41,502 nucleotides of DNA from NCBI GenBank assembly GCA_000708835.1, contig DF237660.1, positions 1 to 41,502 on the forward strand, read 5' to 3'. A program made the translations under genes and the position numbers. The notes under the pieces were generated by a model. The model worked only from the letters and a program-made list of their open reading frames with translations. It made no database searches and was not told the DNA's origin. Shown here piece after piece: positions 1 through 23,553 of the stretch. Position 1 is the first letter of the stretch. Each line of letters opens with the position of its first letter. Source of the stretch: Klebsormidium nitens (lineage: Eukaryota; Plantae; Klebsormidiophyceae).

Positions 1-24
1 TCACATGCGTTTTTCTTGCTCCAG

Positions 25-2974: not shown

Positions 2975-5733
2975 CGCCTTGTGATTCGACTTGTTCGCAA
3001 AGGTTTTAACTAGCGGCAAATACCCATCACCCAGGACTGCTTGAGAGCAAGCTTCCCTTGTTACACTGCTAAGGTGGGTCCAGCCGGGCACACAAATGGC
3101 GCCCGCGAGAAGCCCCAAATGCGGCAAGATAGGGTACGCATCGGCTTTGCCATTTCACCGCTGAAGCTTGCCAAACAGTCAAAGTCCTATTGCACATAAC
3201 CTTCGGCATCCGGCCAAGCCGGCAAAAAGTGGTTCTCCCATGTTGACCATGCAAAGAACTCCTGCCCGCTGCGTATTGTGGTCACTTGAGATACTGAAAT
3301 GCACCTCGCAGCTCTAAGCCCTCCTGTTTAGCGTGGTTGGTGCAGATTGCTTGGCATTTTGTACTCAAGAGCATACAAGTATCCGTATGGCCTCCACTCT
3401 TTCCTATGTAGAGTAGCTAGTTCGCATTGTCTGCTAACAATTTCGTGTGCTTTTTTGCACATCCACCATAAATGTTGCGATTTATAGTGAGAGTGGAGGC
3501 AATTTAGGCGCAAGCTCGGACAAACTTTTGTTCTGCATTGGTGTTGAGGCTTCATTGTATAGCATGGGGGTGCAAAGAGACAGGCCCAAATGGCCCATAA
3601 ACCTATCATGCCAAGCGCTTTGTTGGCTATCTCATAGCATACCATATGAACCCGCCAGTTCTGCAGCCTTCTGAGAGGAAAGGCGCATGGTGGTGCGGTT
3701 GATGAGGTGTTATCATGGAACGCGCAGCTACCGAATGCTGCAACTTTTTCACCTAGTACACTAAATGTATTGCCTTTGGTACGAACCGAGTTGAGCTAGA
3801 ACAATCAAAGCCACATGTGAAATCCAAAAATTGATACTGACCACTATAGCATGCACTAAGATCCATTCGAAGTGTCTAGAATTAACCAGCAAGTGCGCTT
3901 GCTGCTATCTTTATTCCGGAGTAGGGCCCAGCAGCCCCAGCTAATTGCCAGATACGGAGCCCAGCAAGAGTTGGGAACATAGTGACGATGTCCAACTCAT
4001 CCCGGTCAGTCCATACCGGCCACATCAGGCCCCGCCCTTCCTATTCGCCCTTCCGGCCTACGGTTAAAGTGCCATGCGCCACAAGGGGCAGCAAGCCACA
4101 AGAGCGGTATGCCAGCACAGTTGGCGCGACCTGCCTTGCATTCCAAACCAACTCCCCCGGGTGATCTGCCCGACGGCCCGGGGTCCGGTGCCCAAGGTAT
4201 AAGGTGCACGGGCCATGAGGGTTCAGCCCCTACCATTACCATTCAGGCCGCGATAATGGTGCCTGAAAGTGCAGCAAGAAGCGGGATCATGCTAGAAGCT
4301 TCTGTCCCTTGCCACAGCACTCCCCCTTCAGCATCAAGGGGGTCCCTCTGACGTACAGCAACGAGGCTTACATATGTGCTCCGGAGCATATTGTGGGGGT
4401 ATCACTGCCTGCCAACATTAGAGCTTTGGAGCTTGTCTATTGGCACGTGCTGTGTAACACAAGCTTAGGCCCAGTCCAGGGGGGGCGCCATCGCTACCAA
4501 GTCAGGCCCTGTTGCCGCTCGGGCCAGCCATTGAATGCTGCTAATATGGCTGCGAAAGGTCCAGCCTTCGTTCCGTGAAGGTTCCAGGCTGAATCAGCGC
4601 CCAGATATTCTCCTTCCAGTCTGGAAACTTCTGGGGCTGAGTCAGCACTTAGATATTTTGGGACAGGTGGCAGTTTTGGTGGCATAGTAATGGCAAGGCG
4701 CGGCATGGCGTGGCAGCTGTTTTTTGCTGCCTGCCTGGTTTTGATGGGTTCCCACAGCTGTTTTTGGGACATTCCAAGAAACCTTCTCTTTGTAGAGCCT
4801 TGGCAGGGGACCAGAAGTGGCAGTCAGAGAAACGACAACTCCCAAAGTCCTGAAAGGCGCGCGACATGTGCGAAGGTAAGTTCCTGGACACTATGCTACC
4901 TGATTGTTTTTTCAGCTGCAGCATGCTTGCAAGGGAACCAGGCCTGGTACCTGTTTATTCCTGCAAGCTCTGAGTGTGTGTGCATGACAATTCTTTCTTC
5001 TGAGGTGCTGTTTCAAGTAGAGGCAATCTTCTGCTTTGCATGCACGCGCTGATGACAACTCTGTTCTGCATCCTCATTAGCATGTCAAGCGGGATTTGAC
5101 ATGTTAACCAACTTGATAAGTGTCTGAAAGACCGTTAGCAATCACCAGAGTAATTTGGAATCTCAATTGGCGCTTCTTATACTGCTACAGAACATGTGGC
5201 TCAGCTAGTCACGAACGGATGTTGGTCAGGGCTTAATAGCCTGGATGTGGGGAATGATTGAGGCCTGTTGTCCATAATTGAAACTCATGGCAGAGGGCCA
5301 GGTATGTCTGCTTTTGTGGTCTATGAGGACTGTGGACTGAAAGTGTACATGTCCTTTTCTCTCATACAGGTTGAATGTCAATTGATCGCGGACCTGGCAA
5401 AGGAAACACTCAGGTGCAACAGGCTGGTTTCAAGGAGCTGCCCTGGGTTCATTGCCTTGTTCTGGGCTCGACAGCCGCTGGAGACGCGTTGCCATCAGGA
5501 GAGCCCATGGCTGTGCAGCCCACTGATGCGGCCCGTCAAGGGGAAGACCGCAGCTGCTGCAAGCAAAACAACCAGGTTGGTTCTCTGCCCCACCCCACGA
5601 GATATAATTACCTTCAGGTATTTCCCACAAAGGTGTTTCAAGTGGCCTGGATCATTTTATGCAATATTTGAGCTGGTCCATATGTCAGGGCTGTGAGATT
5701 AGCGGCCCGGTACTCCGGTTGGGCTTTTGACTG

Positions 5734-6568
5734 GGTCTACATGTTGTAAGTGGCCATACGGATGCAATCTGACACCAAGTACAAGGTGTGGGCCCTAATG
5801 AGACCCAACTGCAGCGTGGCTTAATGGTGGAGTGGCAGGCATGTGTTCTCTGGTTGCTCTTCTGAGGAGGGTCCACACGTTGATATTGGTTAGTAAGGAA
5901 TTGAGTCTTGAGCCATCTGCAAGGTGTGGGCCGTCAGCAAGCCAGGCCAAGGTGTGGCTTTTGCAGGTGGTTGCAAGCATGCGTTCTCTGTTTCAATTGT
6001 TTACAAACAAGTCCACACCTTGCGTCTGGACCCTAGGATTTCAGTCTTGTTCCAACTACGACGTGTGGACCATCAGCATACCCAGCCGCAAAAGAGCTTC
6101 CGCAGGCGCGCACTTTCTGATTGCCCCCATTTGGATTGAACCCACATGTTGCTACTGGTTCCTAGAAAAATCAAGTCTTCAGCTCCTGTGGGTCACATGC
6201 AAGCCAGGCCACAACTTGGAATCTGGAGGAGATGGCAGGCACGCCGATCTTTGGTACTTGCTTTGAATTGGGGCCACACCTTGTCATTATCATTGGAAGT
6301 CCAGTCTTGCGCCACCTTAAATGGAGCGATTTGCGGGGCATGCAGTTTTTGATCGCTCTTTTGAATGGGTCACACGTTGTATATGGTAATTAGGGATCTA
6401 GCCTTTAGCCATCTGCAAGGTCTGGACCGTAAGCAAGCCCGGCCAGAGCTCAGTTGCTTGGGGGGATTGGGGGGCACAGGCGCTTTCTGACACCTGTTTT
6501 GATTCGAGTCCACACCTTGTAAGTGGTTCTTAGAGATCGAGGCTTCTGCCATCTGCAAGGTATGGACC
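5734..6568. repeat. Degenerate cluster of the ~62-bp palindromic repeat family, mixed orientation
   Basis: Units at ~5734-5794, 5870-5932, 6011-6071 (reverse), ~6270 (partial), 6367-6430 and 6507-6568, e.g. ggtccacacgttgatattggttagtaaggaattgagtcttgagccatctgcaaggtgtgggcc. Confidence 0.75.
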
Positions 6569-6730: not shown

Positions 6731-9700
6731 AAGCCGTCGCCGGGTGCGAGCACTGCTCAGGGAATTTGCCTTTCTCCGACGCCCCCGACGATCGACGCGG
6801 GCACCCATGACTGTCAGGCAAAGGCTCTTTCCCTCTGTGCCATCCGCCAGCTCGCCCCAATGGCTGTGGCAGGACCGTCCGCCGGCATTTCAGTGAGGGG
6901 CTTGCGTGTGCTCCGCAAGCGCGCAGGGATCGTGTGCCGGCGCGCTCAAGGGGAGTTGGGGCCTGCAGGTCTTCTCTGGTCGGAGGCTGCCTGGGTTGGC
7001 AGCTTGCGTGCTGCAATGGGTGGCCTCAAAGGGCTAGCAAATCTGCCAGATGTCGATCTGCTGAGTGGGTTCGAAGAGGTTCTTGCCTCAGTCAAGAGGT
7101 CTCACCTGGAGGGGCTCAAGCAGCCAGCGGGTGTGTCCCGCAGATTCCGCAAAGCAGGACGGCAAACCTCCAGTTGCCCCCGCCCTGCAGCTCGCAGTGC
7201 AGAAAGGAAAGCAGCTCAGCGCCTTGCGCGCTCGCTCTGCGAACCAGAGGACACAGGTAGGATAGCTCGTTCCCGTTCTTGGTGATGCATCTCAGCGCCC
7301 GAAGCTCAGGTCTGAAGCAAAACGTGATGCGAAACAAAGCAGTTGCAGAGAGACTTGGAATCTTCTGAAAATGGGGTGTGTTGACTATTGGGGTCTTTGC
7401 TGGGAGACTCGAGTAGCATCTTTGGGTGCCAGAAATGGTGCGCTGTTCTTTTTATGGGCGGGGCTGTCAAGTGTACGGAAAGTATTTCCGTTTGCCCTGG
7501 CTGCGCTCACAGCTCCTTTGGAAATGTTACTTAGGAGATGAGTTTCGAGTCCCTCAACTACTTTTTGGGAATTGAAGCGCCTTTCAATCAAACATCACAG
7601 CACTCTGCAAGCACACTAAGCATCACCTTCACTGGTTGCCTCTTTTCCAGTTCCGTACGCACTATACTGCCACGAGTGCGGCGCCGGTGCAGACTGTGGG
7701 TTGCGTGGAAGCAAGGAAGGGGGGGAAGTGAAGTACGTTTGCAATGAGCACGCTGACTCGTACCGCTACTTCAGCATCGACAAGGACCGTGCAGGTGAGC
7801 GCTGCATGGATCTGCTTGTTCGATGAGTTGGTCGGCAAACAAGTATTCAAGCGCACACTTGCACTTTTTGGGCAGCACCATAGCAGGGTCCTGCCATGGA
7901 GCCGATCTAGAGCCTAAATCCACTATAATCTGTTCCTTGCAGCGTTGGGACGCGCAAAGGCAAAGGTCGTGGGAAAAAAGGATGTGGCATCGCCGGCCGG
8001 AGACCAGACTCGCAGTCAGTCAGGTGAGCACTTAACCGCAAACGAAGCTGACAGGATATGCGTTATCGACCAATCTGAAGCAAGTGTCCCATTGAGTGCT
8101 TGCCATACTTTTCTTTCATTGCAGGCATATTCAAAGTTGATCCGGATACTAGGATGCAGAGGTTGTTGATGTATTGCTCGTGAATTGCAGCGTGCAACAA
8201 TACCTTCCAGCGAAGTGGGTTGTACTACGATGCAGCGCCCAAAAGCAGACGCCTCACAGGTGAGACACTGATCGAAAGGGCCCCCTAGCTCAAGCTTTTG
8301 CGACCCCCTTGTGCTGCTCCAGAATCTGTTGCCTTCTTCGCCCTTTGATCTTGACATCCTTCTACTGGAAGCTACGTCCTGCATCCTGCATCCATTGCTC
8401 ACATCCGATGTGGTTTCAATGAACAGCGACGCTCCTGATCATCGGGGGAATTGAGCCCAATCCCGGCTGGGGGCCCGACGAGGTGAGCGCTCAAGGCAAG
8501 TCAGCGCCAGGTCACGACATCGGCACAAGTCGGCCACTCATTCCACTGCCGTCGCTTGAGGTGAGCGTACGTCTGACCCTCTTGCAGTTCGTTGTTTCAG
8601 GAGCATCCTCTGTTGATGACTGAACCCTTAACCAAGTTGAGTAGCAGGGCGTCTTCTGTGGCCATAGCTATCAGTGTAGGCGAGCAGGCTCTGCACTTGT
8701 GCTGACATACGGTTGTTGCACAAAGGAATGAGCCTGAGCTTTCTTAATTGGTCCTCTTATGTGATATGCAGGAGGTCTACGGCAAACCGCTGTTGTCCGA
8801 GAGCACGTACCCACTTTTCGAAGATTGGAGGAAGCGAGCACGTTTGAGCAAGCAAGTGAGTTTAGTGACCAAGCAGAACCAAGCGGTATTTGATTCGTGA
8901 AAGTGGGCACATGCACTGTGTTCGTGACTTTCTGCAGCGTCGAATCTTGTATGGAAAGTCGAACGATGCAAATTTAGTCGAAGCACGTGGCAAAAATATG
9001 CCTTTTTGCTTGTTGCATGGATACTGCTTTGTAGTGATATCGGAATTAGATTGACCAGAACAACGGGTTTGTCAATCCTGTGGGAAGAAGCTGCGCAGTG
9101 ATTCTCCCAGAGCGGATCTTTCTGCACATGCAATTGACTTGTTCATTTTCCTCTTTCCAGGTGGGAATCAGCTGTGCAGCCTTGGAGGGAGGCGTTGCTT
9201 CAGGAGAATACGACCGCACGGGAAGGCCCGAGTCTGCGGAAGAGATGCCAAGTCTGGACAGAGAATTGGTCGACGAAGAACTCAGTCATCTGGACAGGAT
9301 TGAAGAGGGTCTTCTGACTGCCCTGGTAAGACCTGAGTTGTAATCTCTTCGCTCTAGTTGGGAGCACCTGAGTTGGGAGCTGTTACGGATGCTTTCTGTC
9401 CTCCTTTTGCAGGCAAGTTGTTGGAGATCATTCAAAGCATTCCGAACTGTTTTCACCTTGGACATGCATGGTTTGTAATCTTACTCAGGTCGCTTGTTCT
9501 CTTTCAAGGTGGAAAACAACGGGGGGGACGAAAGGAGCCAGCTGTCCACTTCGCTGAGAGAAGTATCTGGCGCTGTAAACGAGAACAAGGGATGCGGCGC
9601 CGCAGCAAAGGTGAGGATCCAATCCTGAGGTGCGGACTTCAATCGAGCTCTGGTCAATCTGTGCTGCTCACCTTTGCTTCTGGAAAGGCCACAGAAGCTC

Positions 9701-12700
9701 GATGCTAGCTTCTTTCTTCGAAGTGTTGAGTATGAGCACTGTTTTTGGGCCAGATTAGTATCCTGTTGTGGCTCTCTCTCTTTCAAACTGATTGCAACCT
9801 GCGGACCATCAGGTGTCGGCAATTCGTAACATTTGACGGACTAGCTGGCTGCGGTGCACGAAGTGATCGCCGCTAGTCGTCGCTGTTGCATTAGGTCGTC
9901 CTTCTGATCAGAGCCGTTCTATTCTTTGTCCAGATAAGCCGTGGCAACAAGCGGTCGGCGGCGATTGCGGCCAGTGAGTCCGATTCTGAGCAATCAGGAT
10001 CTGAAGAAGGCGAGGACATTGAGGGGGCCGAATTTGAGAGTGTGGACGAGTCTTCAGACGGGGAGACATCTCAGGACCGCCGTATGATCGACGACGGAAG
10101 CCAAGACGAGGAGAATCCGGTGATCGCGCAAGGCAAAATGCGCGCCGCCGGGAACTTCGATCATGAGCCGGACATCGCCCAGCTTCTGGCTGGGCGCTTC
10201 AAGCCGCAAGCGCCTCGACAGGCGACCAAGGCGCTCCAAACCGGACGCCAAGACCGTCTCCTGCCTTCACGGTCCAAGTCCGCAGCCGACGGGGGCAGCC
10301 CTTCGCGGAGCTCTTGCTCTACCGCGAGCGACGGGCGGTGGGTGGGTGCCCAGGTTGATCAACAGCCGCCGGCCGCCGCAAGTGCTGGGCTCTTGCCGCT
10401 GCGCTCCGGGAGCTTGCAGTCGGAGGAGCTCGAGAAGGACGATTTCGACGTGAGCCTGGTGGTCGGCTGACAAAAGGCTCCTATTTCGGCTGACAGATGA
10501 ACATATCTCGTTGCCTTCGGTCAGGCCGCCTGCTTTTTGCATGAATATGATTCGAATGATGAGGAAGCCTTTTAGATATTGCTTCAGGGGTTCGCAACCT
10601 GTGTTCACGTTGCTGGAAGTGAGGGGGTTTGAGGCCTTTCGTCTGAAGGTGCACGAAATTTGTCGGGTCCGGGCAGGCGTCTGCTTCCGGGACGAACCTT
10701 TTGAAGTCGGAAGCTCTGTGCACGTTGCTGGAAGTTAGGCCCCGGTTTTCCGAGGAAGTGGGTTTTCTTTATCGCGAGGGGTTGATCAACCGAGTCAGAG
10801 AGGAATTTACGGATTTTGCCTGTACATATGAACACCCGCTGATAAATGCGTGGCGATTTTGTCTCTGTCATTCTCGACACTCAGGTGGCTTGGACACATC
10901 CTGGTGACGATTCCTGCGGGTCGGGTGAGGAGGAAGCGGTGGAGTCAGGCCGGCTGCGGAGGCTGCGAGTTGTCAGCGACGAATCGGAAGAGGAGCGTCC
11001 TATTCCCAGGCAGGGACGCAAGGTCGTCCTTTCGCGATCCCCTTCCGCCGAAGACCTCCTTGCAGAGCCGGCGTCTACTGCGCCCGCACAAGGAAATCAG
11101 GTACGTTCTTGCAAGAGCTGAAAGCCTCTTCCGTTGTGAACTTAAAAAGAGCAATATTCAGCCGGAGATGCGCGCAAAATCTGGCCTTTTTCAAGGCGTT
11201 TTCTGGTGACGGTTTCACTTTATCGGGTCGTTGGCATCCACTGTTGGATCTGATGAACGTGCTATTGTTGTAAGGTAAGGTTGGCAGTCCGCTTTGCCTT
11301 CTTATGGTGGTTTCCCCTGTTGGTGTCCACTTTTGAGTCTGATTGGAGTTGCTGAAGGCCTCCAGCCACCTACAAGGTGTGGACCGTAAGCCGGTCCGGC
11401 CATAGCGCACATTTTAGGGCGGACGGTAAGCACAGGGCCCCTCTTCCTTCTCATTACTGGTCAACACGTTGCCTTTGGTTTTAAGGAATTGTATGCCAGG
11501 TCAACTGCAAAGTGTGGACCGTAAGCCGGCCCGGCCGTACCACAGATTACGAAGCCGAAGGCAAGCACAGGCCACGGGTCCACACGCTGTCTTTGGTTTT
11601 AAGGAATTGTATGCCAGGCCAACTGCAAAGTGTGGACCGTAAGCCGGCCCGGCCATACCACAGATTATGAAGCCGAAGGCAAGCACAGGCCACGGGTCCA
11701 CACGTTGTCTTTGGTTTGAAGGAATTGTATGTCAGGCCAGCTGCAAGGTGTGGACCGTAAGCCGGCCGGGCCATGTCGCGGATTTTAGGGCGGACGGTAA
11801 GCACGGGGCCCCCTCCGCTTTCTCATACTGGTCCATACGTTGTCTTTGGTTTTAAAGAATCCTGTCTTCAGCCAACTGCAAGGTGTGGACCGTAAGCCGG
11901 CCCAGCCATACCACAGATTTGGAGCCGAAGGTAAGCACAGGCTCCCACCTTCCTCGGGTCCACACGTTGTCTTTGGAATTAAGAAATCATGCCTCTGGCC
12001 ATCTGCAAGGTGTGGACCGTAAGCCGGCCCGGCCACGCCACCGATTTCGAAGCCAAAGGCGGGCACGGCCCGGTCCACACGTTGTCTTTGGAATTAAGGA
12101 ATCATGTCTCTGGCCATCTGCAAGGTGTGGACCAAAGCCAAGTATCTCTCCATCGCGAAATGCAATCATAGACTCCACTTTCACGTCAGCTCATGATGTG
12201 CGTGTCCATGTGTGCAGGAATCTGAGGGGACAGAAGGCGATGGTGAAGATGTGCGCCAGCAGCCCCGATGGATGTCTGCTGCGGATCTACACGTAAGTCG
12301 AACAATGTGCGCTCCAATGACTGCTCTTTCCAGCCCCTCATGACAGTCAACCAGTGTAAAGTCTTTGAAGAAAGGGGCAACGTTGTTGCTTTGCAAAGTC
12401 TCGGATCCTCCGACCTGCTCTTTGAAACAGCCTGGAAGGCCACTGTGTCTTGATCAAGGGCGTCGAGCTGAAAGAGACCAAGTTTGAGTCGCTCGCGCGC
12501 ACCATCGTCCAGAGTTGCTTCATCCCGTCTCTAATCCCCTTGTCTTTTGCAGGACGATGGCCCTTCCTCCGACCGTGTGCATCCGGCTAGGGAGCCGCAT
12601 TCTGCTGCTGCGGAGCTGGCACCTTTGGTGAGTCCACTCGCCTTCGTGTACGGGGAATGGGCATCTTGACAGTAATCTGGTCGCTGTTGACCCGGATCGA

Positions 12701-15700
12701 ACCTTTGTCGCTCCGACCGCCGAGCCCCTTCCACTCGACAGTCCCGCTCAGTTCCACGCCCCACACGGCGAAGAAGTGCGAGATGAGGTACTCCAACCAG
12801 CTCACGTAGTTATAAAACTTCTCTCCCTCGTCCCAAACAAGAGCTTGCTTGTCGGGTGAAAGCGTCCACTGGCAGTAGAAGGAGGGGAACTTCTTTGCGA
12901 TGTCGTATCCCTCCCCGGAATAGATGCGCTTGCGCACATGTCTGTCGATCTTTACCGGGCGCTTCTCGACAATTGCGTAAGGGAGCTCCAGGTCCTCCTC
13001 GTGGCGGTGGTCGTACACGGCTTCCAGAATAGCGGTCTCCTCAGCAGTCAAGGGTCGAGAAAGGGCGAAGTGACCGGTGAAATGCGTGTCGTAGCCCATG
13101 ATTGCAATGCCCTTTGAGTGCAAAAGCGTTTCCCCTAAGTATGGCAAAAGCGCGTGCTGAGCCGCTTTCCAAATCTTTCGCCCCCAGGTTCGATCTCGGG
13201 AAGAGGGGGCAGGGGGGTCCCCATCGGTGGCGCGCCGACCAGTTAAGAAGAAGCCACGGTAAGCCCGTTGCGCACTTGATTTGATCGTCCTGGGCTCAAC
13301 TGTTGATTCTGTCGTTGGAAAAGCCGTGCATCGAGTGAGCAGCCTGGAGAGGTGCCTCTTCAGGTGGTGTAGGCCGTGCTGTCAGCCCTGCTCAAAGTAG
13401 CAGGCTCGTGTCTGAAGGGGGTTTTTGCCACTAACCAGACTCGCTAACCAAGCACTAACCATAGCATGCAAGTCTGATTAGCAGCTCCTAACCAGACCCG
13501 GAACACCGCAGCTTCTTTCTACTAACTCGACATTCCCTTCATGCACAGGAAACGCACCAAGCCGAGTCCTGCCCCAATGGACGAGGCGACCCGAACCGCT
13601 GGACAAGCGGCTCTTCAAGCTCATTTCCGCAACCTCAGGGAATCGAGGCTCCATGGAACCTGGCAGGAGGGGCAAGTTGTACAGCTAACTGATCCGGGTG
13701 ATCCTGGAGACTCGCTTCATGCTCCCGACGCCGTAAGTCGTCCGCAAATCTGTGGCCTTTGGAGCCAGCTAGACCGCGCAAACCGCTGGCAATCATAATT
13801 GGCTTGTGCGCACAGCCTTGCAAGACTCTTGACAAGCAGGGTGCAGTGCCCCGAATTTGAGATTGAGACTTTGTAAAGCACGTTTTTGTCGGAATGGTTA
13901 CTGTACATGATCTGTAGCCTCTGCTGGCACTGCCTCCTCCAATCTTATGCAGGCCTGCCCCCACTCCAACCAGCGTTTCAGTCCCGTTTATTAGTGCTCG
14001 CTTCAAAACTCACCCGTCTGCTATATTTTTGCCCTCAGGTCCTTGATGAGGAAGCGAGACCATCGACATCACTGGCGCCAAGGACTGGTCGACCAGCTCA
14101 AAAGAAGCGAAGGTGAGTTCTGTGGCCGACTTGGTGCGTCATTCTTGGCTCACCTGGTGCATCATGCAACCGAAAGCGGTGCAAGCAGTAAAGGAAGGGC
14201 AAAAGAAAGATGTACTCCTTTGTTTATCGCAGGTTCTTTTTGCCAGTGCCGAAAGAGCGTCCGACTTGTAATTCTGTCATCAACTCAACTTCCTTTATCC
14301 CACAGCAAACGGGCAAAGCCAAGTCCTGCCCCATTGGACGAGGCGGCTCGGGCGGCTAATCGAGTGGCGGTTGAAGCTCATTTTGGGGCACTGGAGAGAT
14401 CGAGGCCCCATCGAATCCGGCACGAGGGGCAAGCTGTACATCGAGCGGAGTCGTCCGATCTGGGAGGGCCGCACCATGCCGTGGTAAGTGACCTGCAGCC
14501 CTAGTACCCTTTGCACCTCTTGCGGGCGCCTATGTCACTGCTGGGCGCCGTGGGCCATCATGTCTGCACCTCAAGTCACGCAAGACACCGTGCAGACTGC
14601 TCAAGTCAAGACTTGCTGGGTTTGATTTCGAACTCTGCGGTTGTCATTTGCTCTCAATCCTGAGGTTGGCGTACCATCATGAAAGCAAGTAAGGAATAGG
14701 CCAACTTCCTTTGTGAACAGCCAACAGTGCAGGGTCTTGAGGAGTTCGATTCGCCACCTGTGTACCACTTCAGACACCAGAAAGCCCATGATCCGTCCAA
14801 TTTCGCTCACAAGCATTTTGACCTCTCTTTGCAGGCAGCAGCGCGACCGATGCTGGAGGCGCTGGGGGCGGAGGAGCAGATCGCCCAAGAGGCAGCTGCA
14901 GTCGAGGCCCATGTGGACGCGGCCCAGAACGACATAGAGGGCCAGCAGGAGCGCGAGTGAGCCACTGCTGCTTTGTGTTGCTTTGCGTCTGTGTGTGTCG
15001 ACCAGCTGCCTGCACGAATGATTCTCAAACTTCGTCTTGGCCAGGTTGTATTGGGATGCGATTCTCTGGCCGTTTTGATGGAGGCATGCGCGGTGGACCG
15101 TTCCCAAGGGCTTTCTGGAAATGTTTGAGAGGAGAAGTGGGATTGAATACGATAGGAGAAACGGAACGAGCGTTGGGAATGGAGCGCATTCGAAGCACTG
15201 AGAATGCCTGGTTTTTGCAGGCACTCCGAGATGGCGATGCAGCAGCACGTTCTGCAAAGCCCACAGGAGCAAGAGACGCTCGGAGACGCTGAGGTGAGCC
15301 TGACGTCAACATTTGCTGACGGCGGGCACGAACCTCCCCCCTCTCCTTTGTGTTCTTTCAACTGGTCCACACGTTGTCGTTGGTACTAAGGAATGCTGTC
15401 TTCAGCCAATTGCAAGGTGTGGACCGTAAGCCGGCCCGGCCATACCGGGTTGGCAAGACAAACGGTGGGCATGCGCCCCCACTTAATGGGTCCACACCTT
15501 GTACTTGGTTATAAGGGAACGAGGCTTCAGCCATTTGCAAGGTGTGGACCATGTCGAGGCAAGCAGTTTGTAGGCTCGAGTGTGAGATTTTTCGCTGAAT
15601 TGCATGCTCCTGTGTTTTCTGCAGGAGCCCGAGGCGCCCCAGCAGATCTGGGGGGTTCCTGCCGAGGATGTCGGCAACGCGACAAGCTCGCCCGCCAGTG

Positions 15701-18700
15701 CAGAACTCTGTCAGCCCAGCACAGCCCCCGACCTCGACGAGCCTGCCCAATCTGGGAATTGGGTTTCGACGGAAGATGTAAGTCTCAATTGCTCCAGAGA
15801 AACGCTCAATGATAACTGATCAAATCACGTCGTGTATGCTTGGTCCGTAGTAATCGTCAAAGCTGAGCGGTTGTTGATCCTCTTCTTCGCTGAAGTAACA
15901 AACATTGAGGCCTTCAGGGTCTGTATCCAACTGATATCTGATGTAGGGAGCCACCGAGCTCCTGTCCCAGTCCTTAAAGCCGCCATCCTCTGTGAACTCC
16001 TTCAGCAGGTCCGGCCGTTGCAATTTACTTGTGTTGCCGCACTTGCCCATTCGACGAAGGTCGTCGATTGCCTCCAAGGCAGCTTCTAGGAACAGCCTTG
16101 CCCTGTCGCAAGCCTCCTTGTCATTGCGATCGAGCTCAAAGAGATCCTGTAGTTGCTCGTTCGAGATTGGTGCTCCTTTTCCGGCGGCGAAAGACATGAG
16201 ATTTTGCCTTTCTGCAGCACAACGCTTCCCTAAGTAAAAATCTTCATCACAAGTCGTCTGTGGCCGCGCCCCCTTGTTCGGACCCCATCATTGACCTGGT
16301 CCTTCTTTTGTGCAGGATGTCCCTGTGGTGGCGCCCGCCTCTCGAGTGCGCCCTGGCGAGACTCTGGTCCACAGCGAGCACGACGGAAAACTGTTGACCG
16401 TCAAGAAGGCGGCGCTGGGCACCTTTTTCTTCGCCAAGCGCAAGTTCGACGATAAGGTTGACTACCGGGATGCGAAGAACGGGCCGCAGGGTTTCTGCCG
16501 ACGTTATGGAGAAGTGCTCCGCCATCAGGTCGAAATCCGTCGCCTGCGCCCCTCTCGGGAGTTTGGGTCCTACCCAGACTGGCCCTCGGCGTTCCCCAAA
16601 CTGCGCAGCGAGCCTCACTTGGAGGAGGCCATCAAAGCGGGGTGTCCCTGCAAGCCGTACCTGGATCTGGAGAGAGACGGGGGGCTGCCGGACGGGGAGA
16701 CCCTCGAGACGGTCATTGCGGCCTTTGAGGAGGCAATCACGATCGTCTTCAACTTGGACTACGGCCTCAAGCTCCCAGCGGAAGCCTTCAACTGGATCCC
16801 CTGCGACTACGGGCCGGGCGGCAAGTTTAGCCTGCACCTGGTCGTCTCCTCCCATTCCCCCCAGTTTGTCTTCCGGTCCAACCTGGCAGCCCCGGCGGAC
16901 CCTCAGGGAGCGGGCCATCTCGCGAGAAAGCTCGGCCAGCGCTTGCCCGACCGCTATGCCGAGCTCATCGACCAGTCGGTGTACACGAGGAACCGGGGAA
17001 TCAGACTCCCCTACTGCTCCAAACCCTCCACTCCTCAAAGCCGCCTCATCCCCCTGGACGAGAGCAAGCCGTACGCGGACGCCTGCATCACCTGGTTCGA
17101 TGACCACGTCCAGACGATCAAGGTCCCCAGCAGCGAGATCCCCGACGTCGTGCGAGCGGGGCGTCCCCGCAGCAGGCCCGAGCATTTCCGGTACCAAAGC
17201 CCCAAGGTCGCAAGCATGTATGAGATCCAGAGGTGCACCGAGCTCATCCAGACGCTGCACCCGACGGCTTACCGCAGGGGGTCGGCAAACTCGCTGAACT
17301 TCAGCTGGCACGATCGGAGCGAGCCGTGCTACTCGGGGCACGTGCATGCTGGGGGGAGGGACATCCTCTGCATCGCGGCCCCGGAGAAGAACGCAGTCTT
17401 TGCCAAGTGCTGCAGCGAGCGAATCGATCCAACGACGGGCGTGTGCTGCAAGGACCTGCCGTCCAAGTACCTCGGGCCGTACTGGGTGGATTGCGATACG
17501 TGGAAGGACGGTGCTGTGGAGATCGACATGAAGTACCTGCAGCGGAACCCGCTGGCTGCCGCGCCCATGGACCTGGAGCAGATCCGTGGCGGCTTCCGCC
17601 CCCTGACCAACGGGGTCGTTTTAACGACATCATGAACAAGTAAGATCGTTCACTGCGCAAGGGACCTTGGTGCGCGCGCGCTTCAGGCGTAAACGTGTGA
17701 GTCTGGTCGCTGTTGCTTGGTAAGTGCTGCGTCGCTGGTCGCTGGACTCTTAGGCTCAGTTTGTCTGGGATTCTGCTTGGTACTATTGGCAGCCGGTTAG
17801 CGCTGGTCTTGGGCAGATGTTGTGCGTTGGGGAATAGAGGATCGTGCAGAGAACTTGAGGCAAACAGCAGGCTGATCAGCCCTGCTGTTGGAAGGTGTTT
17901 AGACGCTTTTAGGTCTGGTTGACCCCAGGATTTTGATCGCTGTCAAGGAATCGGGACCAGATCTGAGTTGGGAGGCCGAATACATGCCTTTTTCAGAGGG
18001 TTTTGGCAGCGTACAACGCTGCAAACCTGGTTGTGATCAGCGCTGTAAGTCTGCTTGTAGTTGTGTGCTGTTTTGCGTCCGTTCAAAGGGTGCTTGTTAG
18101 CGTTTGAGCAAGGGTTTTGCAGCAAGAACCAGACTGCTGTCGCGCCCCGTGGCGCATGCGTGTCGCTCACATTTTGGCAGCCTAGATAGCGCTTCAGATC
18201 AGATCAGCTGACACCTGATTTGAGGACACCCCGGCGTCAGATTCGGAGCGATTTGGGATTGTGAAGCAGCTTGCAGACAGCCGTCAGGTGTCGAGACTTG
18301 AGGCGCATCTCAAATTGCATCAAGAGCGCGCGTTTGTGGCTGTGGTGGTCAGACAGACAGGGAGGATAGGCAGCTCGACTGTAGTGCATACTGAGGTGTT
18401 GGTGCTTCAGTCTTGCAGCCGTCTTTAGTTTTCGGAAAGCCAGCGCTGTTTAGCGAAAGGGTCTTCATAAGGTTCCTTTGAAATTCTGAACGTTCTTACA
18501 ACCTTTTCGTGCAGGTGGCAGGAGGGTCAGTACAAAGCCGTGATGCTGAGGAGTCCCATGGGGAGCGGAAAGAGCACGCTTCTTCAAGCCCTCTTGGCTG
18601 AAGAACCTGAGCCCGAGACGGTCAACATGGCCTCTTACCGTCGCACGCAAGCTCTGGACGCTCAGGGCAAGCACAAGGACTTTTCTCACTACGAAGTCCT

Positions 18701-20672
18701 CAAGCAGGCAGATGGGCGCGAGGTCGGCGGGCGCTTCATCAGGCCTCTCGCCCACAGGGAGCTCCACCCCCGCGTCATTTGCCAGGTCGACAGCCTGCCC
18801 GGCCTGCTGGCTGAGGATGACGAGGACGCCCCCGCGTTCGACCTGCTCGTCCTGGACGAGAGCGAGTCAATCTTGGCACATCTGTCTGCCAACACGCTTC
18901 GCGAGAGGCACACCGTCATTCGGCTCCTGGTGAGAATGATGAGCAGAGCGCAGCGGATCATCTGCATGGACGGGCACTTGGGGCAGCGGACGTTCGAGTT
19001 CCTCACCATGCACGGGATTTCGTGCTCCCCCGTGGTGGTCAACACCCATCCCCCGGAGCGGCCCCTCCAGGTTGAGTTCGTTCACGGCAAGAACAAAGGG
19101 CTCCCAAAGTGGGAGGGGGCGATCTTTGAGGCGCTGGAGGCCGGCCGCAACGTCTTTGTGGTGAGCATGTCCTCCGACAAAGCACGAGAGTTGGGGGCGA
19201 TGGTCGCGGATCGGGCCGTCGTAGAGAACGACCAGATCTTGATCATCACCCGACACTCAGACGGTGCGGTCAAGCGGGGGCTGCAAGACGTGAACGTGCA
19301 GTGGCGAAAGCGGCTCGTAATCATTAGCCCCACGGTTGAAGCAGGCGTGGACTTCAATCAGCGTTGGTTTCATCAGATGTTCCTGTACATCTGCCCGAAA
19401 AGCACGCACCCGAGGGGCTTGGATCAGATGAAGGGGCGTGTGCGGAAGCTGGAAGACCAACGGGTCCTGTGTTACGTCCAAGAGGGCATCAGGCTGCCCG
19501 CTGAAGGGTCGCTGGGGGACAGCTTCTTGACGAAGATGAAGACCGATTCGGGCAGCATTGCGAGGCTGGGGCTCGAAGAGACCTATCAGTGGTTTTTGAA
19601 CCAGGATCAGAGGGGCGGGCTAGGGGTGAACTGTGCGGGTCCGATAACCCGCCTTCTCGCTCACAATGAGAAAGAGCTCTCTAACGGACAGACGCATTTC
19701 TACGAAGAGTTTACAGACCTGTTGCGGAGCGACGGCCACATTGTCTTGGGCGTGCCTGTCGAGGAGTCGGATGACGGTGAGGCGGTCGAAGTGAATCCAG
19801 GCGGCTCGGAAGAAGGAGGGCGCAGGGGCAAGTATCTTCTTGAGGCGATGATCCGCGCCCCTAATATCTCGCAAGCCCAGTTTGCCGACATCGAAGCACG
19901 GGTCCGCAAGAACCAAGACCATGAGGGGGAGATAATTTCGATGGAGAAGTACCAGCTGGCGCGGTTTTACGACGTGCCACACCTGAACGAGGACTTCCTG
20001 CGAACGGTCGGTCCGTACCCAATCCACGCGGTTGATTTTCTCGAGCAGGTGGTTGACGAAGGGTACAAACATGAGGAAGCGGAGATTGGACGGCACAGGT
20101 ACCCCCCTCTGATGGCAGATATGGCCAGGGAGCTCTTAAGGGTATTGGGATTCGGGCACCCGCTCGACTTGGCTCACAAAACGGCCCCTCTTGAGGCGCT
20201 GAGGCCGCAACTTGCTGGAACTGCCTTCTTCCAGAATTACTCGGAGAACGCCAGGTTATTCCATACTCGGGCAACAGGCGCAGCTGACGCATTGGCCTAC
20301 CAGAAGTCGGCCACGATCGGTCTTAACCACGTCTTCTCGGCGTTGGGACTGCGCTTGAAGGCAAGGAACCTGGGCAAGCTGGAGGTGAACGATGGGAAGA
20401 GCTCAACAGGCAAGCAGCGAAGACGGAAGATTCGATACGGAGGCTGGTATTTATCGCGAAACCCTCGGAGCACGACCCGTCCTGTATGTGGTCCTCCCGG
20501 GGTAGACGTGATGGCTCAGTTGTTGAAGCTTCGTCTGGAGCATTCGGATGCGTTGAAGGCGAGGATTCCGGCAACTTTGAGGGATTACGTGGACGGACTT
20601 CGCTTAGCATGGCCGGAACTCGTCCAGGACAGGAGGTGCGAGATCGAAGTAGGACCAAGAGAGGTGGAATAG
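6731..20672 (+). CDS. Multi-exon gene (~20 exons, ~2,120 aa): low-complexity/Zn-finger-like N-terminus + AEP primase-polymerase + Zn domain + UL9-like SF2 helicase; true start probably further upstream
   Basis: Phase-compatible GT-AG exon chain traced by hand: 6731-7256, 7651-7794, 7943-8023, 8191-8259, 8427-8482, 8772-8855, 9161-9325, 9509-9610, 9934-10449, 10885-11100, 12218-12292, 13188-13258, 13549-13732, 14039-14112, 14306-14483, 14835-14956, 15221-15293, 15625-15777, 16316-17639, 18515-20672. One 1-nt frame break lies in the TTTT run at 17619-17622. Confidence is higher for the last two exons than for the upstream chain. Confidence 0.7.
11322..12133 (+). repeat. Tandem array of 7 palindromic ~62-bp units with related spacers, inside an intron (11101-12217)
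   Basis: Unit ggtccacacgttgtctttggttttaaggaat(N~13)gccaactgcaaggtgtggacc, followed by gtaagccggcccggcc. Unit ends at 11385, 11520, 11638, 11756, 11891, 12018 and 12133 (periods 135, 118, 118, 135, 127, 115). Confidence 0.93.
12587..13099 (-). CDS. Intronless phage-type conserved hypothetical protein, nested antisense in intron 12293-13187
   Basis: MGYDTHFTGHFALSRPL...FPSFYCQWTLSPDKQALVWDEGEKFYNYVSWLEYLISHFFAVWGVELSGTVEWKG...DKGSIRV. This fits a pattern I recognise from bacteriophage hypothetical proteins (MGY-x-T-x-F-x-G...CQW...WDxGEKFY-x-Y-x2-WL-x-YLI...L-x-G-x-V-x-W-x-G). Confidence 0.75.
   Translation of the reverse strand: MGYDTHFTGHFALSRPLTAEETAILEAVYDHRHEEDLELPYAIVEKRPVKIDRHVRKRIYSGEGYDIAKKFPSFYCQWTLSPDKQALVWDEGEKFYNYVSWLEYLISHFFAVWGVELSGTVEWKGLGGRSDKGSIRVNSDQITVKMPIPRTRRRVDSPKVPAPQQQNAAP
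13188..14483 (+). repeat. Tandem duplication of a two-exon module within the large gene
   Basis: Exon pair 13188-13258 + 13549-13732 (RPVKKKPR|KRTKPSPAPMDEATRTAGQAALQAHF...EGQVV) parallels 14039-14112 + 14306-14483 (RPAQKKRR|SKRAKPSPAPLDEAARAANRVAVEAHF...EGQAV), with identical intron phases. The DNA block aagccRagtcctgccccaWtggacgaggcg is shared. Confidence 0.85.
15364..15550 (+). repeat. Two further units of the palindromic repeat, in intron 15294-15624
   Basis: ggtccacacgttgtcgttggtactaaggaatgctgtcttcagccaattgcaaggtgtggacc and ggtccacaccttgtacttgg...ttgcaaggtgtggacc. Confidence 0.9.
15820..16197 (-). CDS. Intronless hypothetical protein (125 aa), nested antisense in intron 15778-16315
   Basis: ATG-initiated ORF with globular-protein-like composition (MSFAAGKGAPISNEQLQDLFELD...) that fills most of the intron; no family recognised. 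Confidence 0.55.
   Translation of the reverse strand: MSFAAGKGAPISNEQLQDLFELDRNDKEACDRARLFLEAALEAIDDLRRMGKCGNTSKLQRPDLLKEFTEDGGFKDWDRSSVAPYIRYQLDTDPEGLNVCYFSEEEDQQPLSFDDYYGPSIHDVI
16316..17639 (+). CDS. Exon encoding an archaeo-eukaryotic primase (PrimPol / NCLDV-herpes primase-like) domain plus Cys/His-rich Zn-binding domain
   Basis: AEP motif I PYLDLE, motif II KFSLHLV and motif III IDQSVYTRNRGIRLPYCSK, followed by EPCYSGHVH...FAKCCSER...C. Acceptor cttcttttgtgcag at 16315; donor aa|gtaaga at 17640. Confidence 0.88.
18515..20672 (+). CDS. Exon encoding a superfamily-2 helicase of the herpesvirus UL9 / origin-binding-protein type
   Basis: LRSPMGSGKS (Walker A), ASYRRTQA (Ia), CQVDSL, LLVLDESES (Walker B), IICMDGHL (III), IISPTVEAGVDFN (V), QMKGRVRKL (VI). 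Order and spacing resemble UL9-family proteins. Splices in phase from NDIMNK to WQEGQYKAVML. Confidence 0.85.
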
Positions 20673-21100
20673 AGGTAGCAATGAATGCGAGCCGTACTGT
20701 GGACTGGAAGTCTGGAGCAATTTGGTCAGGCTAGAGTGTGGTCCGCGTCTTACAGATGGCCGTCAGGCTGCAGTCTTATTTAATCTAGCAATTTGAAATA
20801 TGCGAACCAATATGTATGCTTTTTAGGTTTTGCCAATCTGCGTGCCAACCCGTTTTCAGGAACGCCGCAAGCCAAATCTTTTATAGACCCTAATTGCCTT
20901 CAAGAGTGGGTACACGCGCAATGAATTATAGAGACGTTGAGTGGCATGGTCAATGTGTATATCATTGCATCCAGCGTGCAAGAGGCGTCCAAATGCGCAA
21001 CCTCGGTGTTGCTGCATTATTGCACGCTCGCTAAGTCGCAAGCCGCATACATACTTAGAGAGATGGCTCGGCTCAAAGATATCAACTGAACAGCCCTGCC

Positions 21101-21502
21101 ATGGAGCACCTCGCAGATGGACGCATACTATGCCGAGCCAGTGGGGTCACCTTTGAAGGTCGCCAGAATCGCATACGCATGCTTCGTCCTGGCCAAGAGC
21201 TCGTGCTTCGCAAGCAACTAATGGACGGATATAGCGCGTTTGGCATCGGCATCTTTGACCCTACGGATCGTGACTCCTCGCCTTTAGGCTTCATAGCGCG
21301 CGAAATCAAGTACCATAGAGTGTTCGACCCGATTCGCAGAGGGTCCGAGGTGCAAGCACGATTGCACCGCGTCAATCGGGGAAGCCGGGGCCGCTACGGA
21401 CCGTGGGGGTTTCAAGTGGAGATTGTGGACAATCCGGGCTCCAGTATATGCTACGATCCCGCTTTGGACGACACGCTCTGCGAGATTGTAATAAGAGATT
21501 GA
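21101..21502 (+). CDS. Stand-alone HIRAN-domain protein
   Basis: SGVTFEGRQNRIRMLRPGQELVLRKQLMDGYSAFGIGIF...LGFIARE matches the HIRAN pattern G-v-x-f-x-GRQ...l-x2-G-x2-l-x-L-x-r...N/D-x-y...AI-x-v...lGy-i-x-r. Intronless. Confidence 0.8.
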   Translation: MEHLADGRILCRASGVTFEGRQNRIRMLRPGQELVLRKQLMDGYSAFGIGIFDPTDRDSSPLGFIAREIKYHRVFDPIRRGSEVQARLHRVNRGSRGRYGPWGFQVEIVDNPGSSICYDPALDDTLCEIVIRD

Positions 21503-21666
21503 TCATAGTTTGAAGGCCGTTCGGCGTTAGACTTTCCATAGCTCTACCCTCAACGGCTGATACCGTCTACCTGTAGCTCGAGACATTTATTAGAGGCAAC
21601 AACAATCGATCGTGTTTGAATGGTACCTCGTAAATTTTGCCTAGAGACAAAATCTGAACGGTTTGT

Positions 21667-22221
21667 ATGGATGCCATCCTTGGCTACCGTCCTCATGCCC
21701 GCGTTGCCATCCTGGACATGGATAAACAGATTCTTGAAAGTGCTCGGTCTGCAATTGTGAGGGCATATCAAGACTTTGGATCCCTTGAGACGACGTTGGA
21801 TGCCATTGCCCTGGGCGGCATCCGATCTTTAGCAGAACCGTTCAATGTGTCCCATATCTGCAGAGCCCTCGTGCGCTCGTTGATTGCGGAGGGTTTTCAT
21901 GCCTTTTGGGATAAAAGCAACGATAATTGCCCGTACGCTGTGAAGGTTAGCTGGAGAGCTGCTCTAAGAAATGCGACTCAAGCACGGCGCCGAGCCCGCA
22001 AGCTGCGGGTCGTGACGTCTAGGGAGATTGTGCACGATGCTCGAGTGGTTTCTCCCGTAGACCACATGCAGCCAAGAGCAATATCCCCTTCCTTCTCATC
22101 TCGTCCTCCGAGTGTCATCTGGACGGATTTTAACGTGCCTGTGCTAGGCTTAGAGCAACTGGTGAACCCAGAAAAGGTTCGAGGCGCTCTCGAGTCTCCT
22201 AAATCCGCCCGGTCTGGATAA
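21667..22221 (+). CDS. Intronless hypothetical protein, possibly of a large-DNA-virus family
   Basis: 184-aa ATG ORF. PFNVSHICRALVRSLIAEGFHAFW...VKVSW loosely resembles the NCLDV hypothetical pattern 'yi-x3-L-x3-GF-x-V...isW'; the family call is weak. Confidence 0.55.
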   Translation: MDAILGYRPHARVAILDMDKQILESARSAIVRAYQDFGSLETTLDAIALGGIRSLAEPFNVSHICRALVRSLIAEGFHAFWDKSNDNCPYAVKVSWRAALRNATQARRRARKLRVVTSREIVHDARVVSPVDHMQPRAISPSFSSRPPSVIWTDFNVPVLGLEQLVNPEKVRGALESPKSARSG

Positions 22222-22285
22222 CGGAATATACAAAAAAGCCCACTTGTCTATTTCTGTACACCGCTGGTCACATTATCTAGAGCTA

Positions 22286-22411
22286 GTATATTTTCGGCCG
22301 AAAATATACGAAACTCAAAGTACCCATCTTGCTTTTTATTCGGCTTCTACAAGCAGCGATAACCGTTTTCACCGTGAAAAGCTGCTAACGGTCTCGATTT
22401 GGTGAAATCGA
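22286..22411. promoter_or_regulatory. Cluster of three palindromes directly upstream of the tyrosine recombinase (candidate att/binding site)
   Basis: Perfect 24-bp palindrome gtatattttcggccgaaaatatac (22286-22309); ttttcac-c-gtgaaaa (22366-22380); tcgattt-ggtg-aaatcga (22394-22411). The palindromes are seen directly; the function is inferred. Confidence 0.5.
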
Positions 22412-22497
22412 TTTTGAACCTCGATATTCACGTTATCTGCGGAGGGGGCCTTCAGCGTGGTCAAGATTTTCTCGCCAGTATCCAGATAACCTGAAAG

Positions 22498-23553
22498 ATG
22501 CAAGGGCCTGCCAAGAGCACACGACACATAACCACGGTTTCTGAAGGCGGAAGGCTATTACGCCAGGTCTTTGAGGATGGCGATCGAAATGAGAACACGA
22601 TCGGTCAATATTGCAAGCACGTCATGCGCTTGTTCCAGGGTTTGCACGGGCAAAGGGATTTTAGCAATTTGAAATGGCTCAAGGACGCTGACGGAATCAT
22701 CAAGTACTTTCAAGAAGCCTACCCCTCAAAGCTGTCGATGCAGGCCACTGGGATTAACCCGCTTCTTGTGATAGCGCGCAAAGCATTTCCCGATGACAAA
22801 CAGCTCTATGATGCTTACTATAAGCGGTACACAGAGGTTCGAAAGCTCATGGATCAAAGCAAGCCGCCTCTCCAGCAACTAACAGAGCGCGAAGCAGCAA
22901 ATTGGAAAACTTTGGATCAAATTAACGAGCGCAGAGTGGAGCTACAGAGGCACGTCAATCGCAAGATTCTGAACAAGAAGCCCGAAGATTTGTCCGACGA
23001 GGACAAAATTGTGCTTTTTTGCCACCTCGTATTGTGCCTTTATAGCTATCAACCGGCAATTCGCAATGGATGGGGGGATTGCCCCATCGTGCGCTTAAAA
23101 GACATTAAAACAGTTGAGACTCGCGAGATCATGTCTGGATCCGGAAATTATCTGTTGGAATTCGAAAAAGACGAATTTCGTCTGGTATTGAATGATTTCA
23201 AGACCGTCCGTCACCATGGACCGACTTCCGTAGACATGTCGACCCGCTGCAACAACGTCATCTCGGAATCGCTGGAAGTCTTTCCGAGGAGGTACCTATT
23301 ATCTCGAATCAGGTCGCCCGACAAGCCAATGAGCCGAAATTATCTCTCAAAATTTTGCAGCACAGGTCTTTTCAAGGACGCAAGCGTGGGTTCGTGTCTT
23401 CTTCGCAAGATTTGTGTGAGCAATCTCTTCAAAGACGCCCCGAGCATAGCCGAGCGTGACGACCTTGCGCGGAGCATGTTGCATACGGCCGCTATGGCAC
23501 AGCGAACCTACGAGAAAAAATTCGACCAACACGGCTCTCGGATCCGGTTTTGA
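22498..23553 (+). CDS. Tyrosine recombinase/integrase of the virophage / Polinton-like-virus / NCLDV type
   Basis: N-terminal core-binding-like helices (NTIGQY...LKWLKD). Catalytic set: LYSYQPAIRN (R), LNDFKT (K), SCLLRKICVS (R), ARSMLH (H), AQRTYEK (Y). Intronless, 351 aa. Confidence 0.85.
   Translation: MQGPAKSTRHITTVSEGGRLLRQVFEDGDRNENTIGQYCKHVMRLFQGLHGQRDFSNLKWLKDADGIIKYFQEAYPSKLSMQATGINPLLVIARKAFPDDKQLYDAYYKRYTEVRKLMDQSKPPLQQLTEREAANWKTLDQINERRVELQRHVNRKILNKKPEDLSDEDKIVLFCHLVLCLYSYQPAIRNGWGDCPIVRLKDIKTVETREIMSGSGNYLLEFEKDEFRLVLNDFKTVRHHGPTSVDMSTRCNNVISESLEVFPRRYLLSRIRSPDKPMSRNYLSKFCSTGLFKDASVGSCLLRKICVSNLFKDAPSIAERDDLARSMLHTAAMAQRTYEKKFDQHGSRIRF

Follow-up and report, generated by a model that had tools for sequence, protein, structure and literature searches.

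Why should a primase-helicase of the kind carried by DNA viruses be encoded in the alga Klebsormidium nitens by a gene with more than twenty spliceosomal introns and a long additional N-terminus? The gene lies on contig DF237660.1 of assembly GCA_000708835.1, of which positions 1 to 41,502 (the whole stretch of DNA analysed, hereafter the window) were studied. The original prediction, made from the letters alone, placed it at positions 6731 to 20672 and left the choice between a eukaryotic transposon replicase and a domesticated gene. Based on RNA contigs, profile and structure comparisons and the paralogues of the gene, we favour, with a probability of roughly 45%, the reading that it is a transcribed and spliced copy of a virus-derived replicase family of a long-resident nuclear mobile element, and that this copy was recently split at the boundary between its two catalytic domains (coordinates in Table 1).

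Contigs from eight public K. nitens RNA runs, belonging to six studies, were compared with the locus. GT..AG joints were found for all 20 introns between 6731 and 20672, including those leading from the short exons into the primase exon (15777 to 16316) and across the last intron (17639 to 18515). Because these joints are exact and the stretch 20969–22900 was without cover in 4/4 runs, the contigs represent RNA, although evidence of this type may drop or hide rare and minor variants. Spliced expression was steady (8/8 runs, all six studies), as expected for the host-type expression proposed earlier, and the joint into 16316 disposes of the possibility that the upstream exons belong to a separate transcript. 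The initial count of 19 consecutive GT-AG introns and about 20 exons was close: every intron is joined in RNA, and a 102-nt in-frame exon (9509–9610) that had been missed brings the numbers to 20 introns and 21 exons. The introns of the coding region (n = 21) measure 148–1155 nt (median 306), with phases distributed 13/5/3. The joined N-terminal part consists of 1081 codons without a single stop, whereas each of 2000 shuffles contained at least 18 (mean 34) and the other two frames contain 15 and 28. The N-terminus of about 960 aa first proposed is therefore real, with a length of 1081 aa from the first ATG or 971 aa from Met111.

The reading frame probably begins upstream of 6731, at the ATG at 5375, which is preceded by an in-frame TGA. 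The joint between the exon carrying this ATG (5370–5575) and the 6731 exon was viewed directly only on a paralogous contig, and this copy's own contigs reach 17–31 nt upstream of 6728; the start of ORF1, the first of the two open reading frames (ORFs) described below, is thus uncertain, with Met111 (6860) and Met163 (7016) as alternatives. A further leader exon (4384–4875) is probably part of this copy's message: in one run it was also covered by contigs with the window's own letters. Its upstream ATG at 4690 starts an out-of-frame upstream ORF (uORF) of 185 codons. The leader exons (4384–5575) are about 93–99% identical to other expressed loci; in the next exon the identity to the same contig of a paralogue drops to about 82%, a difference that hints at a 5' module shared or recently exchanged among loci.

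The exon 16316–17639 by itself gave no match in Pfam, PHROGs or NCBIfam. A four-sequence profile of it, on the other hand, matched human PrimPol (E 2.9e-10), and motifs I (DxE), II (SxH) and III (hD) of the archaeo-eukaryotic primases (AEPs) are all present, in columns that are invariant or near-invariant in 67 sequences. Structure prediction, suggested at the outset as a check, was unusable with the single sequence (predicted local distance difference test, pLDDT, 34.7) and reached a pLDDT of 82.9 with the 67-sequence alignment. With the latter model Foldseek retrieved PrimPol first (E 3.1e-10), followed by poxvirus and herpesvirus primases; among viral predicted structures the best were primase/origin-binding proteins of nucleocytoplasmic large DNA viruses (NCLDVs), including F1055L of African swine fever virus (ASFV). 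Motifs, fold and zinc finger place the domain in the PrimPol/herpes-pox type of AEP, with a primase-polymerase activity that is predicted from sequence and model. The last exon matched PF02399 (E 1.8e-21; 76.4 bits against a cut-off of 20), and chains of herpes simplex virus (HSV) UL9 matched residues 10–164 of the helicase (E 3e-8); a match to CyRepA1 stayed below its cut-off. Motifs I, II, III, V and VI of superfamily 2 (SF2) helicases are in place, in conserved columns. The identification of a virus-type AEP primase with a UL9-like helicase was thus borne out.

The single protein of about 2100 aa implied by the original prediction is not encoded here, however. The exons had been described as joining into one frame save for a homopolymer indel; they do so up to a T4 run at 17619–17622, where one base has been lost and blastx changes frame relative to 5/5 fused paralogues shown. 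The loss is real: one RNA contig spans 17320–17639 free of mismatches and gaps, and an indel was listed in 0/4 runs. An assembly error is ruled out by this identity of the RNA letters. Because the break is present in RNA, the exons give two ORFs, with a stop between the two catalytic modules. ORF1 (1520 aa) comprises the long N-terminal part and the PrimPol-type primase with its zinc finger and ends at TGA 17633–17635; ORF2 runs for 721 codons from ATG 17632–17634 across the last intron (17632–17639 joined to 18515–20672) and is identical to the database protein P0004. No frame-restoring alternative splice occurs among the joints listed, and contigs inside the last intron fit intron retention; in a message that keeps this intron, ORF2 would end after three codons. 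The union of both modules in a single polypeptide, as in the fusions of the mimivirus R8/ASFV F1055L type, is therefore lacking in this copy and present in ten paralogues. The break is private to it, since 10 K. nitens copies, including the closest, P0019, read through the site.

The stop and start overlap as ATGA (17632–17635), an arrangement of the AUGA reinitiation type, and the locus could accordingly be a case of functional gene fission, in which a bicistronic message yields primase and helicase as two proteins by termination-reinitiation. The position of the break speaks for fission: the linker that separates the last zinc ligand from the first helicase strand is 203 nt long, 3% of the coding length, and the break lies inside it. 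Met stands at the ORF2-start column in only 2/110 fused relatives, the ATG has an A at -3, and ORF2 is complete with all SF2 motifs and on a branch (0.13–0.14) that is not long; paralogues P0007 and P0009 are annotated as helicase-only. Coupled termination-reinitiation is known to use AUGA overlaps, and non-LTR retrotransposons offer related cases (PMC5972666). Yet, according to the same paper, reinitiation after long ORFs is rare outside viruses. UGGGA is absent within 120 nt upstream of the junction, although other reinitiation systems lack it too. Moreover, the closest paralogue carries Val at the ORF2-start column, one transition from Met, and after the shift any xTG-A yields the same stop, while the split occurs in no other copy readable across the junction. 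We consider fission unlikely, though it is the strongest competitor of the favoured reading.

Other ways of reaching ORF2 fare worse. Leaky scanning is ruled out by the 41 ATGs that precede its start. A programmed -1 ribosomal frameshift at GUUUUAAC, restoring the fused primase-helicase at a low rate, would agree with the required shift, which is -1 and maps to the U run, and with a paired structure predicted just downstream (-30 kcal/mol over 100 nt, a value without shuffle control); but there is no X XXY YYZ slippery heptamer in 270 nt around the stop and the site is not shared with the paralogues read across it, so that we hold frameshifting to be highly improbable. With leaky scanning excluded and neither a canonical slippery site nor UGGGA present, the default is a primase-only product followed by an untranslated helicase trailer. 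The product of this copy is likely to be the primase half alone unless ribosomes restart at the overlapping start, and within the favoured reading the odds that the ORF2 helicase goes untranslated are slightly better than even.

The case for a mobile family comes from the other copies. At least 14 further loci exist in K. nitens, on separate contigs of 8–474 kb (11/14 shorter than 62 kb), so that, counted with this one, the 15 named loci show the dispersed, multi-copy distribution of DNA transposons. Ten copies hold primase and helicase in one frame; only 3/14 models (P0001, P0003 and P0024) span the primase and the full helicase, which looks like a pattern of spread and decay. P0019, with 82% identity in the primase, is itself cut about 35 residues past the break site, and the close metagenome proteins (n = 7, 57–73% identity) start at or within the last exon. 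The copies fall into two clades, A and B, that are about 31% identical in the primase and have the N-terminal head in common. On the helicase core the two are sisters (support 95 with FastTree on 153 rows and 91 with IQ-TREE on 26 chosen rows). In clade B, P0022 stops precisely where the last intron lies, and P0011 and P0014 depart from the family just upstream of it; this suggests an old last intron, probably common to both clades. The sharing of the head, and probably of this intron, across such a distance upholds the long residence in the nucleus that had been supposed. As side observations, the subclade of P0001, P0007, P0009, P0012 and P0015 has its Walker A motif altered to DTAKS, and P0002 carries a ubiquitin-like domain in place of the zinc-finger/2A part; on these grounds, heads and helicase activity appear to vary within the family.

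It is also conceivable that the family, or ORF1 of this copy, serves the host as an extra PrimPol-like enzyme for repriming or lesion bypass, its long N-terminus being regulatory and its helicase dispensable. The steady spliced expression would suit such a domesticated gene, as would the intact AEP motifs and the short AEP branch (0.052, compared with 0.17 for P0019). ORF1 has been left whole, and its stop is no more than 50 nt away from the last junction; stops so placed generally escape junction-dependent decay. Against domestication stand the at least 15 diverged copies with mostly incomplete models, the absence of the head from orthologues outside Klebsormidium among the 188 proteins examined, and the lack of third-position bias in the first 140 nt of exon 6731 relative to a paralogue (5/5/6, from 16 listed differences only). 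We therefore rate domestication as rather unlikely.

The N-terminus was first described as acidic, basic and of low complexity. This fits the region 9934–15777, a spacer with nuclear localisation signal-like clusters at aa 812–822 and 903–910, the former being the predicted K/R cluster, confirmed as RRPVKKKPRKR across the 13258/13549 joint; within the spacer an exon module is duplicated (13524–13683 and 14282–14440, 73% DNA identity). The description does not fit residues ~98–410, which align across both clades as a conserved head composed of a helical block, a CxxC..C..H motif with inferred metal binding, a 2A-like peptide and a short conserved box. Because the first catalytic motif lies at residues 1194–1200 here, compared with about 50–140 in most relatives outside Klebsormidium, the head is an addition.

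The 2A-like core is found in 8/14 other K. nitens copies, followed at +1 by Trp in four, Met in two and Pro in two, the last being P0022 and P0167. Skipping at a 2A peptide requires Pro at +1. In place of the canonical (D/G)xExNPG followed by Pro, the present copy has the core followed by Trp. GxExNPGP is a recognised non-canonical 2A core, and the 2A peptides of non-LTR retrotransposons and other eukaryotic proteins resemble the present one in having a Leu/Ile-rich helix followed by GxExNPG near the N-terminus; the difference lies in the +1 residue found here and in the paralogues with Trp or Met (10.64898/2026.06.17.732966). The K. nitens protein GAQ93188.1, whose 2A peptide ends in NPGP, was classed as 'skipping' in a reporter screen (PMC13405545, supplement 4), and its head and cysteine motif are similar to those of this family as judged by eye, not by computation. 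The other K. nitens row of that supplement has an Ndc10 domain as its top match, and related GG[IV]ExNPGP peptides occur in the skipping, fall-off and non-skipping classes alike (PMC13405545).

Conservation of this kind also bears on the suggestion that the locus is a passive relic, that is, an old endogenous-virus gene that came under a host promoter, had its flanks taken as exons, was spread by segmental duplication in repeat-rich regions and has no function. Both NCLDV-like regions in K. nitens (PMC5294986) and predicted spliceosomal introns in algal endogenous viruses (PMC9693826) have been reported, the introns of the gene harbour intact phage-type ORFs, and the scaffold is a patchwork of mobile pieces. 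But catalytic motifs and head have been kept in both clades, whose primases are only about 31% identical, and the 1081 N-terminal codons, open across 20 joints, would be unexpected after long neutral decay. A relic is thus, in our judgement, very unlikely.

As for its origin, small and giant DNA viruses carry a compact primase-helicase, from which the family likely descends. When 1.84 billion representatives were searched with a profile, 2887 proteins were retrieved at E <=1e-30; among the 150 of these that were listed, relatives outside Klebsormidium are mostly compact (1000–1200 aa), and none of them matches the N-terminal part. Similar proteins were found by an atlas search in Mucoromycota and in virus clusters, and the AEP-helicase architecture may have undergone eukaryotic expansions beyond this alga. 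Metagenome scans gave no related loci, and scans of viral contigs gave nothing close, the matches listed there being distant helicases of 21–30% identity. The architecture itself is known from mimivirus R8, ASFV pF1055L, ostreid herpesvirus 1 and some Yaraviridae (10.1101/2024.02.29.582850). The K. nitens gene shares with the R8/pF1055L type the order of AEP, zinc finger and UL9-like helicase as well as the fold matches, and its compact relatives (~1000–1200 aa, 25–37% identity) include one annotated in Tetrabaena socialis. It differs by its introns, the added N-terminus of about 1000 aa with the 2A-like peptide, the at least 15 copies per genome, the two-ORF split and the absence of capsid genes from the window. 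In this last respect, no major capsid protein or packaging ATPase was detected among 18 ORFs with Pfam and 14 with PHROGs, searches that divergent capsids may escape, and none of the unexplained ORFs listed for the window is long enough for a capsid protein.

Among the replicases of Polinton-like viruses (PLVs) and polisuviruses, a minority are known to be AEP-SF2 fusions, Bodo saltans virus has multi-copy AEP-helicase genes without integrase or flanking repeats, and stand-alone mobility of lone AEP replicases has been proposed (10.64898/2026.10.13.758929, the proposal in section 13). PLV-like contigs also pair UL9-like helicases with a recombinase (L011, E 3e-10) related to the one beside the K. 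nitens gene. In contrast, the PLV and polisuvirus cases lie in viral genomes, and a nuclear family that is spliced, expressed by its host and extended by a head is not described in the accessible part of that report. Eukaryotic PrimPol is alike in offering the closest solved fold, the catalytic motifs and a C-terminal Cys/His finger; the family departs from it in its identity of about 20%, the helicase fusion and nearest relatives that are viral or metagenomic. HSV-1 UL9 has the same N-terminal SF2 helicase motifs and differs in lacking a primase; its C-terminal origin-binding domain has no demonstrated homologue here.

Several observations weigh against a mobile replicase family. No transposase or recombinase lies within the gene, no integrase tied to it was found, and comparison of the window with itself gave no element ends, terminal repeats or target duplication. 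The closest proteins are only 82% and 73% identical and no near-identical copies were found, which leaves a recent burst unsupported, and the incomplete paralogue models may stem from fragmented assembly or poor annotation. In the AEP tree, whose deep branches are weak, clades A and B are not sisters. Both ORFs of this well-spliced gene are otherwise free of lesions across 2240 codons, which also fits selection on both halves, and with Trp at +1 ribosome skipping at its 2A-like peptide is doubtful. Finally, the cassette downstream has a GC content of 49%, against 59–63%, with no RNA cover over the part examined. Cumulatively, the at least 15 loci, most with incomplete models, tilt the decision towards a transposon replicase and away from a domesticated gene, and the missing integrase and element ends leave it unsettled.

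Under the favoured reading of a mobile-element replicase, the mobility, enzyme activity, nuclear import and role of the head are inferred, mainly from the domains. The basic clusters would carry an intact family protein into the nucleus, the UL9-like SF2 helicase would open the element at some site, where the PrimPol-type AEP, equipped with its zinc finger, would prime and extend DNA, giving rise to extra copies. While the product is being translated, the head with its 2A-like peptide would restrict or split it, in the manner of 2A peptides of retrotransposon proteins, and host splicing, uORFs and 2A-like head together could hold its level low.

A more far-reaching version of this reading invokes 62-bp palindromic repeat units, present in three introns of the gene and at 32.3–33.2 kb. 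Their 13-bp box occurs 41 times in the window, against 0.29 expected, mostly as 18 palindromic units of 61–63 bp. In their two inverted boxes around a spacer they recall HSV oriS (PMC13483431), from which they differ in that the spacer is only 50–59% AT. Loose contig ends at the repeat suggest that it is dispersed, and a miniature transposon is at least as likely an explanation as an oriS-like origin. It would be a long shot to see here a hitherto undescribed class of nuclear elements in streptophyte algae that lack a capsid and copy themselves, each consisting of one spliced primase-helicase gene under a 2A-controlled head, with a replicase that fires at oriS-like 62-bp units in introns and elsewhere, and with the present copy re-evolved to a two-protein form by AUGA stop-restart.

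The component parts are already known, and the work cited above also reports relics of NCLDVs in this alga and introns predicted in endogenous viruses of algae. We found no published description of the family; as the literature covered leaves out most subscription journals, this does not prove the family to be unpublished. It would be easily missed, as databases split or truncate these genes. Virus-derived replication genes in algae are usually regarded as silent, intron-poor relics, and this one is spliced, steadily transcribed and equipped with a new conserved head, in a host that is studied in the laboratory as a model of how land plants arose, which renders the proposed steps testable. With this family the proposed movement of AEP replicases without an integrase can also be tested directly, and, should ORF2 be translated, the locus would represent a rare termination-reinitiation after a 1500-codon ORF on a nuclear mRNA.

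Table 1. Features of the K. nitens primase-helicase locus and its surroundings (window positions)
Feature	Position	Strand	Basis or remark
Probable 5' leader exon	4384..4875	+	six upstream ATGs; paralogous contigs spliced 4875 to 5374
First coding exon	5370..5575	+	in frame with 6731; first in-frame ATG of ORF1 at 5375
62-bp palindromic units	5870..6568	.	inverted GGTCCACACNTTG boxes, 36-bp spacer; first coding intron
Conserved-head exons	6731-7256, 7651-7794, 7943-8023, 8191-8259, 8427-8560, 8772-8855, 9161-9325, 9509-9610	+	RNA joints; alignment with paralogues of both clades
CxxC..C..H zinc-finger-like motif	7668..7751	+	aa 249-276; kept in P0001, P0167, P0023, partly P0022
2A-like (StopGo-like) peptide	8256..8470	+	aa 340-355, spans 8259/8427 joint; core GGIEPNPG, then Trp
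Spacer exons, first set	9934-10449, 10885-11100, 12218-12292, 12553-12627, 13188-13258, 13549-13732	+	RNA joints
Tandem array of 62-bp units	11373..12133	.	6 full units; 11101-12217 intron
Intact 170-aa phage-type ORF	12587..13099	-	antisense in 12628-13187 intron, overlaps end of exon 12553-12627
Spacer exons, second set	14039-14112, 14306-14483, 14835-14956, 15221-15293, 15625-15777	+	RNA joints
Two 62-bp units	15364..15550	.	15294-15624 intron
Intact 125-aa orphan ORF	15820..16197	-	antisense in 15778-16315 intron; no family match
PrimPol-type AEP primase-polymerase with Cys/His zinc finger	16316..17635	+	profile, fold, motif conservation
AEP motif I DLE	16652-16672	+	aa 1194-1200
AEP motif II SLH	16823-16840	+	aa 1251-1256
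AEP motif III hD	16967-17008	+	aa 1299-1312
Cys/His zinc finger	17324-17452	+	C338, H344, C365, C378 of exon near-invariant in 67 sequences
Frame break and ATGA stop/start overlap	17619..17635	+	ATG 17632-17634, TGA 17633-17635, 4 nt before last donor
UL9-like SF2 helicase, ORF2	17632..20672	+	Walker A GSGKS, Walker B DESE, motifs III, V, VI, C-terminal part
3' untranslated region	20673..20892	+	RNA contig ends at 20819-20892 in 4/4 runs
Two short intronless ORFs	21059-22221	+	without RNA cover
Recombinase-like 351-aa intronless ORF	22495-23553	+	related to PLV-type contig protein L011, E 3e-10; 1.8 kb downstream of gene
Intronless Prim-Pol (PF09250) and DUF5906 SF3 (superfamily 3) helicase gene	23956-26830	+	frameshifted, other frame from ~26075-26379
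Two long Cys/His-rich ORFs, 747 and 567 aa	27060-31742	-	no library matches
Array of seven 62-bp palindromic units	32243-33151		inverted relative to intronic arrays; adjoins KDZ-like ORFs

Two intact ORFs nested antisense in introns suggest either that the gene has expanded in the upstream direction across adjacent element genes or that genes of this kind were inserted later. The 170-aa ORF matched phrog_38666 (E 2.7e-22), 16/19 candidate viral stretches were confirmed for it at 29–58% identity, and its atlas clusters were 69–87% viral; matches to GenBank phages were nil. A contig at 12600–13216 fits intron retention and does not point to antisense expression of this ORF.

The intronless, lower-GC cassette downstream of the gene looks like a separate insertion. 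The recombinase-like ORF, with putative tyrosine-recombinase motifs, gave no family match, and the first of the short ORFs before it (21101–21499) resembles a HIRAN domain, an assignment unconfirmed by Pfam, NCBIfam or PDB. The Prim-Pol/DUF5906 gene, 3 kb away from the gene described here, is another primase-helicase, broken and unrelated to it. The two long Cys/His-rich ORFs resemble a KDZ-type transposase with zinc fingers, although no library confirmed this, and the adjoining repeat array may be a subterminal repeat of such a KDZ-like element.

Exon-like ORFs of an upstream gene occupy 1–2974 (+), without Pfam matches; its end is a putative Crinkler-type restriction-endonuclease domain. At 34000–35830 (+) lie GC-rich (66–67%) exons of an apparent host gene, presumably RETICULATA-like though unconfirmed, one fragment of which was scanned and found no match in Pfam. 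An ORF of 311 aa runs on the opposite strand from the Cys/His-rich ORFs at 29211–30146, and a perfect 24-bp palindrome is located at 22286–22309, upstream of the recombinase-like ORF.

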